A stretch of 57,017 bases of DNA from Candidatus Dormiibacterota bacterium (GCA_036269255.1 DATASI010000182.1:1-57017), one strand, 5' to 3'. Positions 8,080 through 14,543 are shown, counted from the first letter of the stretch. Made by a program: numbers and translations. Notes: a model not told the origin generated them from the letters alone.

Positions 8080-8201
8080 ACGATCCTTAGCTGACCTTCA
8101 TCCGGCGTTCAGGGCCCCATGCGACCATGGAACGGGACCGCGGGCGATCGCCCGTTGTTCAGTCCTGCGAACTTTCGGTTCAATCCAACGTGAGCAGCAT
8201 C

Positions 8202-9593
8202 ATGGCCCGACGCGAGCTTCCTGAGCGGCGAGGCAGCCGTGCCATCCAGCCGGCGCCGCGCCGGTTGTTCTTGAGCGCGTCCGACATCGTGGTGATCGTG
8301 GCGATCAACGCGCTGCTGGTCGTCGGGATGTGGATCCGGCACGGCGGGCTGAACCAGCTGGGAAGCGCGTCGGCGAAGTTCACCGCCGCCGGGCAGATCA
8401 CCGCACTGATCGGCACGTACGGCGCACTGGTCCAGATCTTCATGATGTCGCGCAGCCCCTGGCTCGAACGACGCTTCGGCATGGACGGCCTCGCGGTCTG
8501 GCATCGCTGGCTGGGATTCAGCGTTGTGACCCTGATCAGCGCGCATGTGGCGTTCAGCACCATCGGCTATGCGCTCGGCGACGGCAAGTCGATCATGAAC
8601 GAGGGATGGACGCTGATCACAACTTATCCCTACGTGCTGATGGCGACGGTCGCGACCGGGCTGCTGATCATGGTGGCGGTGACGTCACTGCGGGCAGCCC
8701 GGCACCGGATGTCGTGGGAAACCTGGCGCTTTCTGCATCTCTATGCCTATCTCGCGATCGCGCTCGCCTTCGGGCACGAGCTCGCGGTCGGCACCGATTT
8801 CAGTGATGACGGCGTCGCGCGCGCGTACTGGATCGCGCTGTACGTCGCCCTCGGACTCGCCATCCTGGTCTTTCGGGTCGGCGCCCCGCTCTGGTTGAGC
8901 CTACGGCACGATCTGCGGATCGCGGAGATCGCGCCCGAGGCCCCGGGCGTCGTCTCCCTGTACATCACCGGAAAGGACCTCGATCAATTGCGCGCTCAGG
9001 CCGGGCAGTACTTTCGATGGCGATTTCTCACCCGGACCGGTTGGTGGCGCACCCATCCGTTCTCGTTGTCCGCTCCGGCAAGCGCGCGCGCCCTGCGCAT
9101 CACGGTCAAGGGCGTCGGTGATGACAGCCGGGCGCTGCACGGGTTGCACCCGGGAACGGCGGTCGCGATCGAAGGTCCCTACGGCCTATTTACCGCACAG
9201 CGGCAGCGCCGGGCCAGGGTCCTGTTGATTGCCGGGGGCATCGGGATTACGCCGCTGCGCGCCCTGATCGAGGAGATCCGCAGCAAACGCGATGCCATCA
9301 CCCTGATCTATCGCGCGAGGAGCTGGGAGGACGTGGTCTTCAAAGACGAGCTGGAGCAGCTGATGCGTGAGCGGCGCGGCACCATCCACTATCTGATCGG
9401 CCAGCGCGGCAGTGCCGAGCTGCCGGTCGATCCGCTCTCCGCCCAGACGATTCGCCGCCTGGTGCCCGACGCCGCGTCTCGCGACGTTTTCGTCTGCGGA
9501 CCGCCGTCAATGATGGAGCGGGTGGCCGGCATCCTGGGGTCGATCGGCGTTCCGCAAGACCAGATTCATTTCGAGCGCTTCGCGCTGATTTAA
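8202..9593 (+). CDS. Ferric reductase-like (NOX/FRE-type) membrane protein with FAD- and NAD(P)H-binding domains
   Basis: Six-TM N-terminal half with conserved His residues. The C-terminal half has RWRF...HPFSLSA (FAD) and LLIAGGIGITP (NAD). The start is uncertain (8127-8202). Confidence 0.85.
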   Translation: MARRELPERRGSRAIQPAPRRLFLSASDIVVIVAINALLVVGMWIRHGGLNQLGSASAKFTAAGQITALIGTYGALVQIFMMSRSPWLERRFGMDGLAVWHRWLGFSVVTLISAHVAFSTIGYALGDGKSIMNEGWTLITTYPYVLMATVATGLLIMVAVTSLRAARHRMSWETWRFLHLYAYLAIALAFGHELAVGTDFSDDGVARAYWIALYVALGLAILVFRVGAPLWLSLRHDLRIAEIAPEAPGVVSLYITGKDLDQLRAQAGQYFRWRFLTRTGWWRTHPFSLSAPASARALRITVKGVGDDSRALHGLHPGTAVAIEGPYGLFTAQRQRRARVLLIAGGIGITPLRALIEEIRSKRDAITLIYRARSWEDVVFKDELEQLMRERRGTIHYLIGQRGSAELPVDPLSAQTIRRLVPDAASRDVFVCGPPSMMERVAGILGSIGVPQDQIHFERFALI

Positions 9594-9602
9594 AGGAGGA
9601 GC

Positions 9603-10079
9603 ATGCCAACCCGCGCCGCCGTCGCCATCATCGCGACCGTCATAGGAGTCTTTCTGCTGTTCAGCTTCAAGACGCCGGCCCAGGCGCGCCCCAAGACACC
9701 CTCGGCCGACGTGGCCCAGGCGAGCCCATCGCCGGGCGCCTCACCCTCGGGCAGCCCATCGGCGTCGGCGACGACGTCACCCAGCAGTAGCTCCGCCTAC
9801 AAAGATGGGACCTACACCGGGCAGGACGTTCAGAACCAGTTCGGCGACACCCAGGTCAAAATCACGATCTCGGGCGGGAAGATCACCGACGTGCAGGCGA
9901 TTCAATTGCCGTACGACCGCCAGCGCTCCGCCGAGATCAGTCAGTTTGCCGCCCCGCAGTTGCACGACGAGGTGCTGCAGGCGCAGAGCGCGCAAATCGA
10001 TCTCCTCTCCGGTGCCACCTTTACCAGCGACGCCTATGCGCAGTCGGTGCAGTCGGCGCTCGACCAGGCGCATCGGTAA
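9603..10079 (+). CDS. Membrane-anchored FMN-binding domain protein (ApbE flavinylation substrate)
   Basis: AAAGGAGGAG SD, an N-terminal TM helix, a Ser/Pro-rich linker, an FMN_bind fold (VKITISGGKITDV) and the flavinylation-type motif DLLSGATFTS. Confidence 0.85.
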   Translation: MPTRAAVAIIATVIGVFLLFSFKTPAQARPKTPSADVAQASPSPGASPSGSPSASATTSPSSSSAYKDGTYTGQDVQNQFGDTQVKITISGGKITDVQAIQLPYDRQRSAEISQFAAPQLHDEVLQAQSAQIDLLSGATFTSDAYAQSVQSALDQAHR

Positions 10080-10081
10080 GC

Positions 10082-10861
10082 ATGGCGATTCAATCGCTGC
10101 CGGCACGCGATCGCCGGCTGCGGGTCGAGCCGGTGATGGGGACGGTGATTTCGATCGATCTCCGTGACGAAGGCGTTCCGGAGCAGGCGATCGACGACGC
10201 CATCGAATGGTTGCATGCCGTGGACCGGCGGTTCAGCCCGTATATCCACGAGAGTGAGCTCAGTCGCCTCGGCCGGGGCGAGATCACCGTCGACGAGTGC
10301 CACCCCGATCTGCGAACGATCCTCGATCTCTGCGAGGAGCTTCGTCTGGAAAGCGAGGGCGCCTTCAACGCCTGGATGGCGCGAGCCGATGGCCGTCTCG
10401 ATCCCTCCGGGGTCGTCAAGGGATGGGCGGTCGAGCGGGCCGCGCGGATCGTGGCAGAAGCCGGGGGATGGAACTTTGCCATCAGCGCCGGCGGCGACGT
10501 GATCGCCCGAGGCGCGCCCGAGGCCGGACGCAAATGGCAGGTCGGCATCCGCCATCCACATGACCCGAACGCCGTGGCCGCCACGGTTGCCGTGACGGAC
10601 CTGGCGATCGCGACCAGCGGCAGCTATGAACGCGGCGATCACATCCTCGACGGGCGAACCGGCGAGCCGGCTCGTGAGCTCCTCAGCCTGACGGTTGCCG
10701 GGCCGAGCATGATGCTCGCGGATGCCGCCGCCACCGCGGGATTCGCGATGGGTGAGCGGGGGATCGCCTGGGTCGCGAGGCGCGACGGATACGACGCCTA
10801 TGGGATCACGGTCGACGGGCGGGTGCGCTACAGCGACGGATTCGCGCGCCTGATGGCCTAA
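10082..10861 (+). CDS. apbE: FAD:protein FMN transferase (ApbE family)
   Basis: EPVMGTVISI..., SGVVKGWA, ISAGGDV and IATSGSYERG motifs. It starts 2 nt after the upstream stop. No signal peptide or lipobox is visible. Confidence 0.85.
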   Translation: MAIQSLPARDRRLRVEPVMGTVISIDLRDEGVPEQAIDDAIEWLHAVDRRFSPYIHESELSRLGRGEITVDECHPDLRTILDLCEELRLESEGAFNAWMARADGRLDPSGVVKGWAVERAARIVAEAGGWNFAISAGGDVIARGAPEAGRKWQVGIRHPHDPNAVAATVAVTDLAIATSGSYERGDHILDGRTGEPARELLSLTVAGPSMMLADAAATAGFAMGERGIAWVARRDGYDAYGITVDGRVRYSDGFARLMA

Positions 10862-10900: not shown

Positions 10901-13900
10901 TCAGTCGAGGCCCTCGGCGCGGGGCGACCGCTCGTCCACGACCAGCTCGTCGAACGACTGCCACGGCACGCCCCACTCGAACCATCCATGGACCCACGGT
11001 TGGAGCAAGAAGGCCGCGCCGCCGTACAGCATGGGCACAAGGGCGCACTCTTCCTGGACCAGCCGCTTGTCGGCCTGGTGGAAGAGCCCAAGACGCGTCG
11101 GCCCATTGGTTGCGCGGACCGCTTGCTCGATGAGCGCGTCGAGCTCCTCCGATGTCCAGTGCCCGAGATTCGATGAGCTCTTGCTGAAATAGACCCCGCG
11201 CAGGTAATACTCCGGGTCCGGGTAAGCCGCGACCCAGTGCCCGATCATCGCGTGCGCCCACTCGGGGGCCCGCTCGTGCTCCGACGTACTGGCTTGAACG
11301 AGCTGCACCTCGACGCCCAGGACTTCACGCCAGCCCATCACGAGGGGGGACCAGAATTCGGCCATCCCGACGCCGTAAAAGGAGACGACCAGCGGTCCGC
11401 GATCCGATGACTTCGCCAGCTCGGTCCGGGCACGGTCCGGATCGAAGGGCAGCGCGATGTCCGGTGTGTGCCCGATGATGCCAGGCGGGGGAAAGCCGCC
11501 GGACGCAAGGACGTCCGTCTGGAGGACGTGCGGTTTCAGGCGCTGCCGATCCGTCGCATAGGCGATCGCGCGCCGGAAAGGCAGATCTCGAATCATCGTC
11601 TCGCCGGTGAACGCAAGAAAGGTCGATCGGGTGGTCGGCGGAGTCGCAACCTTGAAACGTGGATCGGAGAAGGCGGCCTGTGCCGCCGCGCCGGGCAACC
11701 AGCTGAGAAGGTCCAGCCTGCCCTCGTACATGGCTTTGATCGCGTCGGGTCCAGATTCGACAAATTCGATGGCGCCCACGTTTCCGCTACGCCAGCGTTT
11801 GAACGATGGGTCGCGTTCGATGACGACATGCTGGGGCGTGGCTTCCCGAACGAGGAACGGTCCGCTCGACGCCTGTTTTGACGACGCGGCATAGGCGGGC
11901 CAGCCGAAGAGGTGCAGCAGGTAGGGCGCCTGTTCTTGAAGACGGAATTCGACTGTCTGCCGGTCGAGCGCCCGCACACCGACGTCACTGAAGTCCTCCA
12001 TCTGGCCCTCGACATAGCGATCGGCATTTTCGAGCATCAACGTATTGGCCCTCGCAAGGAATTCATTTGCCGGGGTCATCAGCGCTTTGAGCGTGTTGAC
12101 GACGTCCTCGGCGGTCACCGGTGTGCCATCCGACCTCGATGCCCCTTCCCGTAGATGGATGCGGTAGGTGCGACCGTCGTCACTGACCTCCCAACGGTCG
12201 GCAAGCGCCGGAATCACATAGACGCCCTGCCGAACGTCGACCAGCCGGTCGTAGAGTTGTTGGTGGAGCCGGACGTTCGAGGTATAGAGGGCGTTTAGTG
12301 GATCGAGTTCCCAGGGGACGAGGCCGGGGGCGATCCGGAGGCCGGCATTAGCGACCGGATCGGGTCGGGTGACCGGCTGCCACTGCGCAAAAGCGCGTTG
12401 CCACGTCTCATTGGCCTCCCGATATCGCATGCCAAGGTGCAGGGCAGTCGCCAGCTGGAAGAGCGTCTCGGCAGCCTCCTGGCGCCGGTCCGCGGCTTCG
12501 AGCAGGGGGACGAGCGAGCGAAAGTGCTCAGCGGCCTCATCCAGCGACCACTCAGCAAGCGCTCCGTCGCCGGCGAGCTTTAAATACTCCGCTGCCTTCT
12601 CGCGATCGTCGCTGCCCAGCCAGTGGTGAGCCAGCAGGCCGTAGACCCGTTCGAGCCGGTCGTGATAGTACGTCTCGTACCATTCCGCCGCGCGTCGGTG
12701 CAGCGCCGCGCGTTTCGTGGCGACCAGCGTCTTGTAGGCCGCCTCTTGAATGAGCGCATGCTTGTACCGGTACACTGACCGATCGCCGCCGGCCTCCTCG
12801 CGCAGCAGGTCGAGCCGCAGCAGGTGGTGGATGGCCGCCCGCACGCGGGGTAGGTCGAGCGCCGTAACCGCCTGGACAAGCTCGATGCTGAAGGTTCGCC
12901 CCAGCACCGCCGCCGAGGTCAGCACATCACGCCAGTCCGGCTCGAGGCGGTCGATCCGAGCGATGATGACGGCTTCCAGGCTTTGGGGAAGCTGCACCGT
13001 CGATCCACCGACGACGTTCCAGTGGCCGTTCTCCGGGACGAGCACCCCGCTGTCGATCAGCGAGCGAAGCAACTGCTCGAGGTAGAAGGGGTTGCCCTCC
13101 GCATAGGCAAGCAACTGGTCGACGACCGACTGCGGCAGATGGCGGTTGCCGGCGAGCGATCGCAGCAAGGCTGACTCGGAGTCGGTGGTCAGCGGCTGCA
13201 AATGCAGCTCACGGAACAGGTGCCGATACTCGCGAGCGGCCTTTTCCTTGAGCCGCCACGACGGATGGTCGGTCTCCGGCCGCTGGCTGACGGCCAGCAT
13301 CACCGGCGCCGTTTCCACCAGGCCCAGCAGGCGCTCGGTCAACGCCAGCGAGGTGGCGTCGGCCCAGTGCAGGTCGTCCAGGGCGATAACCACCGGGCGT
13401 TCCGTCGCGAGCCGCTCGAGCATCTCACTGAAGACTTCGAAGGTTCGGTATTGCAGCGATTCCGGCGACAGCTTCTTGAGCTGTTCAGCGGCATCCGGTT
13501 CGAGGGTGACGCCCAGAACGGCGGCCAGGTACGGATAGGCTTGTGCCCCGCGCCCGGGGAAGGCCTCGTCCGTCATCTTGCGCAGCTTTACCCGTACCCG
13601 AAGCTCCGGCTCGGTCGGGCCAATCCCGAGCCAGTTGCGCAACAGGTCGCGATATGGCCAGTAGGGGAGAGCCTCACCGTACGAAACGCATCGCCCCTCA
13701 AGCCAGGCGTACGTTCCGGCTTCCGTCGCCTGCCGTCTCAGCTCGGCGGCCAGGCGGCTCTTGCCAATGCCGGGCTCGCCCACGATGAACAGCACGGCGC
13801 CCCTGCCGCCGGCGAGGCGATCGACCAGGTCGGAAACGGTTCGTAGCTCGGCATCGCGGCCCAGCAAAGGTCCCGATACGGCTTCCGCCTCGTGCGTCTG

Positions 13901-14479
13901 ACTCGGACCGAGCAGCTCGAACGCCGTGACGGCCTGGGCCTTTCCCTTCAGCTCGAGACGTCGCGGCTCTGACCACCGGAACTCGTGTGCGACCTGCCTC
14001 TGGGTCGCCTCTGAAACGACGATGCCATTGCGGGGCGCCGCCGCTTGCAGTCTGGCAGTGGTATTGATGGTGTCGCCAACGACGCCGTATTCGACCGCCG
14101 AGCCCGTCCCCACCAGGCCGACCACGACGTCGCCGGTGTGGATGCCGATCCGCATGGCAAAGTCGCTAACACCCCATCCACGGCGCACCTGCTCGCCGTA
14201 GTCCCTGGCGGAACCGATGATGTCGAGCGCCGCCCGAACCGCCCGCTCGGGATCGTCTTCATGGGCGATGGGAGCGCCGAAGAGCGCCAGGAGGCCGTCG
14301 CCCAACAGGTTGTTGACGCTGCCACCGTAGGCTTCGACGGCCCGGATGGCCCGCCCAATCGCCTCCCCGATCACCAGCTTCGCCTCCTCCGGGCCCAGGG
14401 CTTCGGCGACGGGCGTCGACCCAACGACGTCGGCAAAGAGGGCGGTGACAATCCGGCGCTCGTCGGGAGCGTCAGTCAT
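10901..14479 (-). CDS. Multidomain signalling protein: class III nucleotidyl cyclase + STAND/AAA_16 NTPase + helical TPR-like region + C-terminal family-5 solute-binding-protein (DppA/OppA-like) domain
   Basis: Cyclase region aa 1-195 (ALFADVVGST, LLGDGLLALFG, GDTINTTARL). P-loop VGEPGIGKS and Walker B VVIALDDLHWAD. From about aa 712 to 1192 the sequence reads WEVSDDGRTYRIHLREGASRSDGTPVTAEDVV..., which closely fits the SBP_bac_5 signature region. No TM helix or signal peptide. Confidence 0.85.
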   Translation of the reverse strand: MTDAPDERRIVTALFADVVGSTPVAEALGPEEAKLVIGEAIGRAIRAVEAYGGSVNNLLGDGLLALFGAPIAHEDDPERAVRAALDIIGSARDYGEQVRRGWGVSDFAMRIGIHTGDVVVGLVGTGSAVEYGVVGDTINTTARLQAAAPRNGIVVSEATQRQVAHEFRWSEPRRLELKGKAQAVTAFELLGPSQTHEAEAVSGPLLGRDAELRTVSDLVDRLAGGRGAVLFIVGEPGIGKSRLAAELRRQATEAGTYAWLEGRCVSYGEALPYWPYRDLLRNWLGIGPTEPELRVRVKLRKMTDEAFPGRGAQAYPYLAAVLGVTLEPDAAEQLKKLSPESLQYRTFEVFSEMLERLATERPVVIALDDLHWADATSLALTERLLGLVETAPVMLAVSQRPETDHPSWRLKEKAAREYRHLFRELHLQPLTTDSESALLRSLAGNRHLPQSVVDQLLAYAEGNPFYLEQLLRSLIDSGVLVPENGHWNVVGGSTVQLPQSLEAVIIARIDRLEPDWRDVLTSAAVLGRTFSIELVQAVTALDLPRVRAAIHHLLRLDLLREEAGGDRSVYRYKHALIQEAAYKTLVATKRAALHRRAAEWYETYYHDRLERVYGLLAHHWLGSDDREKAAEYLKLAGDGALAEWSLDEAAEHFRSLVPLLEAADRRQEAAETLFQLATALHLGMRYREANETWQRAFAQWQPVTRPDPVANAGLRIAPGLVPWELDPLNALYTSNVRLHQQLYDRLVDVRQGVYVIPALADRWEVSDDGRTYRIHLREGASRSDGTPVTAEDVVNTLKALMTPANEFLARANTLMLENADRYVEGQMEDFSDVGVRALDRQTVEFRLQEQAPYLLHLFGWPAYAASSKQASSGPFLVREATPQHVVIERDPSFKRWRSGNVGAIEFVESGPDAIKAMYEGRLDLLSWLPGAAAQAAFSDPRFKVATPPTTRSTFLAFTGETMIRDLPFRRAIAYATDRQRLKPHVLQTDVLASGGFPPPGIIGHTPDIALPFDPDRARTELAKSSDRGPLVVSFYGVGMAEFWSPLVMGWREVLGVEVQLVQASTSEHERAPEWAHAMIGHWVAAYPDPEYYLRGVYFSKSSSNLGHWTSEELDALIEQAVRATNGPTRLGLFHQADKRLVQEECALVPMLYGGAAFLLQPWVHGWFEWGVPWQSFDELVVDERSPRAEGLD

Positions 14480-14543
14480 GTCGGGATTGAAGCACAGGCA
14501 GGACTCAGGCGTTTGCCCAGACGGCCGGGACTAAACTGCCGCC

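Follow-up and report, generated by a model that had tools for sequence, protein, structure and literature searches.

The window, a stretch of 57,017 nucleotides from Candidatus Dormiibacterota bacterium (GCA_036269255.1, DATASI010000182.1:1-57017), contains a complete CDS at 10901-14479 on the minus strand, which starts with ATG and encodes a single polypeptide of 1192 aa plus the stop codon. The ORF is already the longest possible reading frame, so that an N-terminal extension is impossible. The GC3 of the CDS is 0.80, in the usual range for the genes of the window, and its GC content is uniform with that of the flanks. Three Pfam matches were found in the protein, Guanylate_cyc (PF00211), AAA_16 (PF13191), and SBP_bac_5 (PF00496), all of which exceed the gathering cut-offs. 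The cyclase-STAND-SBP_bac_5 architecture proposed in a preliminary description of this DNA was thus borne out; the nucleotide ranges given there for the modules were right within a few codons, and the peptide motifs quoted are present. No signal peptide, lipobox, or hydrophobic segment was found in the 1192 residues, and the N-terminus is strand 1 of the cyclase. A TM helix is predicted to be absent, because the Kyte-Doolittle maximum is 1.46 (19-residue windows). The fusion protein is cytoplasmic, as had been claimed, and probably soluble. In comparison with a 97%-identical homologue (L089), dN/dS was 0.21 for the whole gene, and 0.15, 0.16, and 0.26 for the cyclase, the STAND module, and the SBP domain, respectively; purifying selection acts on all three parts. 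AlphaFold2 models were obtained for the full-length protein (pLDDT 87.8, pTM 0.70) and for aa 1-705 (pLDDT 87.9).

The N-terminal class III nucleotidyl cyclase catalytic domain comprises aa 10-185 (13925-14452, minus strand; PF00211, E 1.5e-18, 67.5 bits, with the cut-off at 21.9). Among PDB sequences it matches Cya2 best (2w01, E 2.8e-28), and a Foldseek search with the model of aa 1-705 gave TM scores of 0.87-0.91 to the class III cyclases CyaC, Cya2, and CyaB. The domain has the metal-binding residues D17 and D61, and the transition-state residues N139 and R143, none of which varies among 64 relatives (45-76% identity). The purine-specifying pair is canonically Lys/Asp in adenylyl cyclases and Glu/Cys (or Glu/Gly) in guanylyl cyclases. 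N57 and G132 occupy these positions here, which is neither of the canonical pairs; within the family, Asp (43 sequences) and Asn (14) are found at position 57, and Gly (43), Ala (12), and Ser (8) at position 132. With a non-canonical pair, the nucleotide product is not assignable from sequence. By likeness to Rv0386, whose substrate-specifying residues Castro et al. reportedly found in 2005 to be non-canonical too, cAMP is the probable product; synthesis of cGMP, or a mixed specificity, may also be considered. The cNMP label of the switch proposed earlier is tentative, with Asn-57/Gly-132 in place of the Lys/Asp of adenylyl cyclases. A flexible linker (aa 186-204; 13868-13924, minus strand), with pLDDT below 50 at residues 195-201 in both models, joins the cyclase to the ATPase.

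The STAND ATPase, including its winged-helix/TPR arm, spans aa 205-699. The AAA_16 P-loop nucleotide-binding domain (aa 205-395; 13295-13867, minus strand) matches PF13191 with E 1.1e-30 and 107.7 bits, against a cut-off of 32.6. The Walker A motif is GEPGIGKS (aa 234-241; nt 13757-13780, minus strand), and the Walker B motif is VIALDD (aa 364-369; nt 13373-13390, minus strand); G234, G237, G239, and K240 of the former and D369 of the latter show no variation among the 64 relatives. DSSP analysis of the models placed the helical and winged-helix arm of the nucleotide-binding oligomerisation module at aa 396-586 (12722-13294, minus strand). The model of aa 1-705 aligned with ADP-bound Apaf-1 (1z6t) over 528 columns in Foldseek (E 2e-10). 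The arm is followed by a TPR-like segment (aa 587-699; 12383-12721, minus strand), modelled with pLDDT above 90 as six helices (587-604, 609/613-622, 626-642, 646-662, 666-682, and 686-699). No TPR family matched the window protein at E 0.1 or better in the Pfam scan; in relatives, TPR_12 and TPR_MalT match at the position of this segment. A short conserved tether (aa 700-711; 12347-12382, minus strand), with the family consensus ..ANETWQRAFxxWxPP..TLR.., connects the last TPR helix to the first SBP strand, and the pLDDT drops to 74 there.

The C-terminal part (aa 712-1192; 10904-12346, minus strand) is a complete OppA-like (cluster C) SBP_bac_5 domain that lacks an export signal; true secreted SBP relatives, unlike the fused domain, do carry lipoboxes. 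The PF00496 match covers aa 755-1103 (E 1.9e-44, 152.7 bits) and profile positions 2-367 of 368. OppA/MppA were aligned with the SBP part end to end by phmmer (E 4e-24, residues 38-498 of 517), and E. coli OppA was matched by BLASTP with 24% identity (E 6e-29). In the models, the domain superimposes on liganded OppA, MppA, and DppE with Foldseek TM scores of 0.83-0.85 over about 510 columns. Both the completeness of the domain and its SBP fold, as put forward in the preliminary description, were therefore confirmed.

The best 120 relatives (45-97% identity), drawn from JGI, ENA, NCBI, and Logan assemblies, are 1165-1250 aa long and have the identical three Pfam domains; the exceptions are three shorter entries (909-1077 aa), in one of which the cyclase match is missing. 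The linker sequence at the SBP junction is conserved among them. A frameshift or assembly fusion around 12300-12400, which had been named as a possible source of error, is ruled out: over 120 full-length relatives that share the architecture come from assemblies made independently. The source names of the relatives in NCBI and JGI read 'ABC transporter substrate-binding protein', and it might be asked whether the domain is an ordinary component of a transporter. One lineage (L084/L085), the only one with an adjoining Opp-like operon, has its fusion gene divergent to OppC/SBP/OppB-like genes; however, the free SBP of this operon shares only about 22% identity with the fused domain. In the window, no permease or ATPase genes adjoin the fusion gene, and no other SBP_bac_5 genes were found. 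Moreover, the SBP domain begins at residue 712 of a cytoplasmic enzyme without signal peptide, lipobox, or TM helix, and its codons are in frame and under purifying selection. An ordinary ABC-transporter SBP or an artefactual fusion of two genes is hardly credible, and was rejected on the grounds of the cytoplasmic context, the conserved junction, and the in-frame selection.

The STAND and SBP_bac_5 block (AAA_16-TPR-SBP_bac_5) is not confined to cyclases. It is also joined to Pkinase, to Trans_reg_C and BTAD (SARP), or to both, and the number of SBP copies in such proteins is one, two, or four. A signalling module would be expected to look like this, with exchangeable outputs on a single sensor chassis. 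In cultured homologues (Rhizobium, Paraburkholderia, Tolypothrix, and Kribbella), a long TPR_12/TPR_MalT array is found where the SBP domain sits. The proposal that the SBP domain acts as the STAND sensor fits this replacement of the distal TPR array, and also the block being common to cyclase, kinase, and SARP outputs; the sensor role itself is suggested by these comparisons. The preliminary description knew of no characterised example. No published account of the cyclase-STAND-SBP_bac_5 architecture was found in the literature within reach of our search, so that this part of the claim held; the architecture is nevertheless common in metagenomes, which tempers its rarity. The fusion protein belongs to a large, apparently unstudied group of putative receptors of uncultured soil bacteria.

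These features are best explained, at a probability of roughly 0.6, by a one-component, ligand-gated oligomerising cyclase of the MalT/AfsR/PknK/Rv0386 type. In proteins of this type, a STAND (AAA_16) ATPase is flanked by an output domain at the N-terminus and a sensor at the C-terminus. In the resting state, ADP would be bound, with the arm, the TPR segment, and the SBP domain keeping the ATPase closed, and the cyclase domains would be monomeric and inactive. A cytoplasmic ligand would enter the cleft of the OppA-like domain, and closure of the latter, in the manner of a Venus flytrap, would be transmitted via the short tether and via the TPR arm, enabling the exchange of ADP for ATP and oligomerisation of the protein. 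Class III cyclases have complete active sites in the dimer form only; the oligomer would pair the N-terminal cyclase domains as dimers, which could then produce the cyclic nucleotide. We infer the binding of a small ligand by the SBP domain, the gating of the ATPase by this ligand, and the activation of the cyclase by oligomerisation. The general STAND mechanism was reportedly established on MalT (Danot, 2015). SgrR/DsvR provide a precedent for SBP_bac_5 as a cytoplasmic sensor (PMC13060122).

The cleft was compared with those of known binding proteins. In OppA, Asp-419 and Arg-413 anchor the peptide termini (PMC3173086). A1085 and I1079 align with these residues in an alignment of about 20-24% identity, in which the columns are approximate, and in 60 of the 64 sequences of the clade the Asp-419 equivalent is replaced by Gly, His, or Ala. 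The columns of NikA Arg-97, Arg-137, and His-416 correspond to E806, A862, and F1098, with the same approximation (about 20-24% identity); the ligand residues Arg-97 and Arg-137 are not conserved in the aligned clade. Peptide, opine, or metal had been suggested as the ligand class, and for the window protein none of these is supported by the residues at the OppA anchors (Ala-1085/Ile-1079) or at the NikA positions. From the sequence, the ligand is probably not a peptide gripped by its free termini. The SBP domain has the lowest conservation of the modules (0.57, against 0.67-0.72 elsewhere), and the cleft is less conserved still: the OppA-contact-equivalent positions, which we take from the OppA literature and place by an alignment of about 22% identity, score 0.42 against 0.57 for the domain (resampling p about 0.003). 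Since the cleft is variable and Asp-419/Arg-413 are replaced, one defined ligand across the family may not fit it.

It is therefore worth considering whether the SBP domain is intact but ligand-free, serving as an auto-inhibitory lid, or as a surface for oligomerisation or protein-protein interaction, while the signal enters elsewhere (the TPR arm, a partner protein, or ATP/ADP levels). The lost terminal anchors and the cleft varying more than the domain average are in agreement with this, as is the SBP domain being the fastest to diverge (42% identity to the homologue P0020, against 59% over the whole protein). However, the three-lobed fold is fully retained, is modelled with high confidence, and resembles closed, liganded SBPs, and the dN/dS of 0.26 is that of a domain under constraint. 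Of 119 SBP domains in the wider STAND-fused set, 87 retain the Asp that binds the peptide alpha-amino group, which argues for use of the cleft in the majority. Nor is a variable pocket unusual for OppA-type proteins, in which main-chain atoms are read instead of side chains (PMC3173086). A ligand-free SBP domain thus seems rather unlikely, and the ligand-gated cyclase is preferred.

The fusion gene is neighboured in the window by greA and by a ferric reductase/FMN_bind/ApbE operon. Across lineages the neighbours vary, and none that is conserved, for example a gene for a cNMP receptor or a transporter, was found to indicate a pathway. This context bears on a possible role in conflict, in which the protein would be an NLR/Avs-like anti-phage or stress-alarm sensor: the SBP domain, evolving fast, would detect a peptide or protein that is foreign or derived from damage, and the cyclase would synthesise an alarm nucleotide, as in Pycsar or CBASS. 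Bacterial NLR-like proteins have the same layout, with an N-terminal effector, STAND, and a C-terminal sensor; the cleft of the sensor is hypervariable, tandem SBP arrays occur in relatives, and PADLOC PycC models match the cyclase (best E 3.8e-17). However, the PycC matches are no stronger than that of the generic Pfam cyclase (60.5 against 67.5 bits), and the PADLOC STAND models gave no match. No gene for a cNMP-activated effector adjoins the fusion, the other outputs are kinases and SARP DNA-binding domains rather than toxic effectors, no plasmid or phage records bearing the fusion were found, and the GC content matches the flanks. In Pycsar, the gene of a PycC-type cyclase adjoins that of an effector with a cNMP-binding domain; assignment to this system was rejected, given that the PycC models match the cyclase only by its generic fold, and given these neighbours. 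A conflict sensor in general appears quite improbable.

A broader reading is offered as a tentative conjecture, against which the odds are considerable. The STAND-SBP_bac_5 proteins might form a large, unrecognised class of intracellular receptors of Chloroflexota, Actinomycetota, and Dormibacterota. Their hypervariable OppA-type clefts, sometimes arrayed two or four times, would monitor the cytoplasm for peptides or metabolites resembling them (such as products of proteolysis, muropeptides, or peptides of foreign origin), and signal through cyclase, kinase, or transcriptional outputs via NLR-like oligomerisation. If true, these receptors would be a bacterial counterpart of peptide-sensing innate receptors.

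STAND ATPases (MalT, AfsR, PknK, Apaf-1, NLRs, and Avs) are central switches. To our knowledge, the activating ligand of most bacterial members is not known, one reason being that helical-repeat sensors are hard to read. OppA-type domains are among the best understood and most tractable binding folds; they often co-purify with ligand, and show a large, measurable closure. In a STAND protein with an OppA-type sensor, the coupling of ligand to oligomerisation would therefore be directly testable. The analysis also corrects the systematic misannotation of the relatives as transporter components. Soil phyla that have been little studied are rich in this modular chassis, which combines cyclase, kinase, or SARP outputs with one to four SBP copies and could be turned into a biosensor scaffold.

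Among known systems, the Mclx proteins (Rv0386, Rv1358, and Rv2488c) and the widespread cyclase-AAA_16-TPR proteins of rhizobia, Burkholderiales, and cyanobacteria have the N-terminal class III cyclase, the STAND ATPase, and the helical arm in common with the window protein; the homology extends from aa 7 to about 700, with 30-35% identity. The C-termini are different: a LuxR HTH in Mclx, a long TPR array in the rhizobial and cyanobacterial proteins, and SBP_bac_5 here. Mclx proteins are defined by a cyclase homology domain, NB-ARC/AAA, and a LuxR HTH at the C-terminus (PMC4452763); no GerE/LuxR match was found in the window protein with Pfam, which places it outside this group. The TOMM system kinase/cyclase fusion protein (TIGR03903) was also rejected, with 280 bits against an equivalog cut-off of 705.75, profile positions 280-935 only, and no kinase domain. 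A similar logic of output domain, P-loop NOD, arm, and C-terminal sensor is used by MalT, AfsR/large SARPs, and PknK; their sensor is a helical repeat (TPR/Sel1-like), whereas the window protein has an SBP fold and a cyclase output. We know of no described signal-transduction STAND member with a sensor of the periplasmic-binding-protein fold.

The SBP domain matches the whole fold of OppA, MppA, and DppE, which serve ABC importers for oligopeptides and murein peptides; unlike these, it forms part of a cytoplasmic enzyme by fusion, is not exported, and lacks permease genes as partners. The only described cytoplasmic SBP_bac_5 sensor found is SgrR/DsvR (HTH and SBP_bac_5; PMC13060122). In SgrR, the output is direct binding to DNA, and there is no STAND ATPase; the HTH is absent from the window protein, and pairwise similarity to E. 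coli SgrR was undetectable by BLASTP (best E 1.2). The recruitment of SBP_bac_5 was therefore independent of SgrR, so that the fold of family-5 SBPs has been taken into the cytoplasm a second time. The GC-A cyclase domain is among the structural matches of the window cyclase. In the natriuretic-peptide receptor guanylyl cyclases and the trypanosome receptor adenylyl cyclases, a Venus-flytrap domain controls a class III cyclase, as is proposed here; the PBP-fold sensors of these two groups are extracellular, of PBP type I, and coupled across a membrane without a STAND ATPase.

The cyclase-STAND-SBP gene lies at 10901-14479 on the reverse strand of the window, and has 1192 codons with an ATG start. 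This is the longest frame possible between stops, so there is no hidden N-terminal extension, and the first cyclase strand stands at the very N-terminus of the protein. The GC3 of the ORF (0.80) is the same as that of the other genes in the window (66% GC). Three Pfam domains were matched above their curated cut-offs: Guanylate_cyc (aa 10-185, E 1.5e-18), AAA_16 (aa 205-395, E 1.1e-30), and SBP_bac_5 (aa 755-1103, E 1.9e-44, profile positions 2-367 of 368). The module coordinates and peptide motifs of the preliminary description agree with the ORF translation and these matches. No NCBIfam model matched the protein at its cut-off; the TOMM kinase/cyclase model gave a partial match (280 vs 705.75 bits needed), and the OppA, SapA, and NikA models scored far under threshold. 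A Kyte-Doolittle scan over 19 residues found no hydrophobic segment (maximum 1.46). In the 64 bp between the ATG and the greA start (14480-14543), no sigma-70 consensus was found, and no Shine-Dalgarno-like purine run is visible 5' of the ATG at 14479; the scan for promoter and terminator consensus gave no informative signal in this sequence of 66% GC.

The preliminary description had raised the question of an artefactual fusion around 12300-12400. The best 120 database relatives share 45-97% identity with the window protein, and come from JGI, ENA, NCBI, and Logan assemblies. Lengths of 1165-1250 aa are found in 117 of them, and the same three Pfam domains in all but one. The alignment of 64 of these relatives showed that the sequence joining the last TPR helix to the first SBP strand is conserved, and that each of the three modules contains invariant residues. 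Those of the SBP domain include Y772, N900, H1004, W1050, D1088, R1129, H1134, and D1137. The contig of the 97%-identical homologue (L089) is syntenic with the window, and comparison with this homologue gave dN/dS values for each module (cyclase 0.15, STAND part 0.16, SBP domain 0.26). Substitutions are few, but in-frame constraint is evident on each of the three parts. An assembly or frameshift fusion is therefore ruled out by more than 120 independent full-length homologues, the conserved junction, and the low dN/dS throughout. Among the named relatives, Candidatus Dormibacteraeota MAGs are the closest (58-59% identity).

In the cyclase module, all 64 relatives share D17 and D61, which bind metal, and the transition-state residues N139 and R143. 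By sequence, the closest solved structure is that of the guanylyl cyclase Cya2 (2w01, E 2.8e-28), with CyaC next, and the predicted model superposes on CyaC, Cya2, and CyaB with TM scores of 0.87-0.91. The cyclase looks catalytically competent from its sequence. Its product is not readable in this way, because the substrate-specifying pair (N57 and G132) is non-canonical. At position 57, 43 of the 64 relatives have Asp and 14 have Asn, and at position 132 they have Gly, Ala, or Ser; the aligned residues are Glu and Gly in Cya2, and Lys at the first position in CyaC. Residues 56-57 (14309-14314), which immediately precede the second metal Asp, seem to co-vary pairwise in the same alignment: Lys-Asp in about 43 of 64, and Asn-Asn in 14-15, including the window protein (Asp-Lys in CyaC). 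These pairs may mark two nucleotide-specificity subtypes in the clade.

The STAND module contains intact and conserved Walker A (GEPGIGKS, aa 234-241) and Walker B (VIALDD, aa 364-369) motifs. The AlphaFold2 model of aa 1-705, which is confident (pLDDT 87.9), aligned with ADP-bound Apaf-1 (1z6t) over 528 columns (E 2e-10), and aa 587-699 form six TPR-like helices. Homologues from cultured bacteria (Rhizobium, Paraburkholderia, Tolypothrix, and Kribbella) align only to aa 7 to ~700, as do those on Sinorhizobium and Cupriavidus plasmids. Pfam scans of four cultured homologues found an SBP domain in none of them, and a TPR_12 or TPR_MalT match downstream of the ATPase in three. The SBP domain thus stands where the distal sensor repeats would otherwise be.

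The SBP domain alone was searched against 1.84 billion cluster representatives, and 358 matched with E <= 1e-30. The best 150 of these are mostly long proteins with a C-terminal SBP part, and local domain mapping and Pfam scans placed a Walker-A STAND module upstream in at least 74 of them. The N-terminal outputs include class III cyclases (~20), SARP DNA-binding domains (Trans_reg_C+BTAD, ~20-24), Ser/Thr kinases (~16-19), BTAD with kinase (~3), and BTAD with cyclase (~1). A Pkinase-AAA_16-TPR-SBP_bac_5 protein of Candidatus Aquidulcis (Chloroflexota) matches aa 203-1163 of the window protein with 30% identity; the STAND-SBP block is therefore passed on as a unit, and the outputs are exchanged. 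In a rough neighbour-joining tree without support values, the outputs are intermixed, and four of six secreted lipoprotein SBPs fall outside the STAND-linked group. The number of SBP copies in the STAND-SBP proteins is one, two, or four. Tandem arrays of two or four complete SBP_bac_5 domains were observed in the relatives P0121 (2843 aa), P0146 (2704 aa), P0176, P0184, P0200, P0217, P0229, and P0233; these arrays lie mostly downstream of a STAND module, which was not detected in P0146, and P0121 reads BTAD-AAA_16-SBPx4. Classical STAND sensors are repeat arrays as well, whereas the repeated units here are whole binding proteins. Several database proteins of 540-580 aa (P0138, P0192, P0198, P0201, P0209, and P0251) start with 'MKLGLTY...', a stretch within the last TPR helix that leads into the SBP domain. 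These are perhaps cut-off gene calls, or else genuine short TPR-SBP proteins without the ATPase. Among GTDB species representatives, the full-length cyclase-type members are only MAGs, from Actinomycetota (Gaiellaceae, Thermoleophilia), Dormibacteraeota, and Chloroflexota (Anaerolineae, Caldilineae).

The SBP domain aligns end to end with OppA/MppA (phmmer, E 4e-24), and shares 24% identity with E. coli OppA (BLASTP, E 6e-29). In the full-length model (pLDDT 87.8, pTM 0.70), this domain superposes on liganded OppA, MppA, and DppE with TM scores of 0.83-0.85 over ~510 columns; the fit to open MppA is poorer (TM 0.64). The one described cytoplasmic case of the SBP_bac_5 fold found in the literature is SgrR/DsvR (PMC13060122). 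A relationship to SgrR was rejected, since the SBP domain of E. coli SgrR shows no detectable similarity to the one in the window protein; the recruitment was therefore independent here.

A peptide bound by OppA is anchored at its alpha-ammonium by Asp-419 and at its C-terminal carboxylate by Arg-413 (PMC3173086). The equivalent residues in the window protein are A1085 and I1079, and of the 64 relatives, 40 have Gly at the Asp-419 position, 16 His, 4 Ala, and only 1 Asp. The OppA-type Asp is kept in 87 of 119 fused SBP domains of the wider set. Judged by this residue, the ligands of many wider-set receptors probably carry a free amino group, and the clade of the window protein is a derived or early-branching exception. 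The SBP domain is the least conserved module (0.57 vs 0.67-0.72 in the others), and 19 OppA-contact-equivalent positions are significantly less conserved than the SBP average (0.42 vs 0.57, resampling p ~0.003), a comparison limited by the ~22% identity of the alignment and by its dependence on a contact list from the OppA literature. One main rival explanation, that the SBP domain is now a ligand-free regulatory or interaction module, is supported by the loss of the anchor residues and by the variability of the cleft. A metal or metallophore ligand had also been considered in the preliminary description; NikA-like binding of this kind is not supported, as the key NikA Arg residues are absent. 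In a weak alignment (~20% identity), a His in 49 of 64 relatives matches NikA His-416, the Ni-coordinating residue; the window protein has Phe at this position (aa 1098, 11186-11188), and lacks the remaining NikA ligand residues.

The fusion gene stands alone in the window. On one side it converges with a ferric reductase/FMN_bind/ApbE operon, and on the other it is divergent from greA, from which 64 bp separate it. The three genes of the operon (8127-10861, forward strand) encode a ferric-reductase-like membrane flavocytochrome (Ferric_reduct with FAD/NAD binding), a protein of the FMN_bind type, and ApbE, a flavin transferase. This cluster, syntenic in L089, looks like an extracytoplasmic flavin-based electron-transfer module. 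Six further contexts have no neighbour in common save the syntenic L089; no conserved operon partner or cNMP receptor was identified beyond close synteny in the seven contexts including the window. A true transporter SBP is ruled out by the lack of an export signal and of permease genes. In one Dormibacter-like lineage (contigs L084, 3325-6886, and L085, 3322-6933), the fusion gene is divergent to an operon in which the gene for a free lipoprotein SBP_bac_5 lies between those for OppC-like and OppB-like permeases. A recent duplicate of a neighbouring transporter SBP was rejected, because the free and fused SBPs share only ~22% identity and the adjacency is restricted to this one lineage. The arrangement could hint at a transporter-receptor pairing in this lineage.

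The domain layout and the variability of the sensor support an NLR-like conflict sensor, the other main rival, but the genomic context and the nature of the alternative outputs argue against it. PADLOC returned only generic PycC matches, no stronger than the Pfam cyclase match, and the full-length fusion was found in none of 72,556 plasmids or 50,697 phage records. A defence system was rejected on these grounds, and nothing suggests a mobile element or defence island.

Of the readings considered, a cytoplasmic one-component STAND switch has the best support, given the observed architecture, motifs, predicted folds, selection, and modularity of the window protein. By analogy with MalT-type STAND proteins and class III cyclases, a ligand in the SBP domain would relieve auto-inhibition. 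The STAND ATPase might then exchange ADP for ATP and oligomerise, and the cyclase domains would be brought together as active dimers.

LacI, LysR, and SgrR are familiar examples of PBP-fold sensors in the cytoplasm; what specialists would find noteworthy is the choice of sensor and the size of the hidden family. The relatives P0020, P0025, P0050, P0060, and P0091 and JGI entries, which are cytoplasmic proteins of ~1200 aa, are named by public pipelines either 'ABC transporter substrate-binding protein' or 'ABC-type oligopeptide transport system substrate-binding subunit/class 3 adenylate cyclase', a systematic misannotation that masks the family. NCBIfam has no model for the cyclase-STAND-SBP architecture. 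The open-access papers and bioRxiv preprints searched contain no mention of SBP_bac_5 together with AAA_16 or Guanylate_cyc, and no description of STAND proteins linked to OppA-type domains. Reviews of SBP signalling treat free SBPs that dock onto membrane receptors (PMC8050422). A STAND ATPase with a cyclase output is already known from Rv0386/Mclx (PMC4452763), which resembles the window protein in these two parts but differs in the sensor. The kind of system is therefore known, and the sensor is new.
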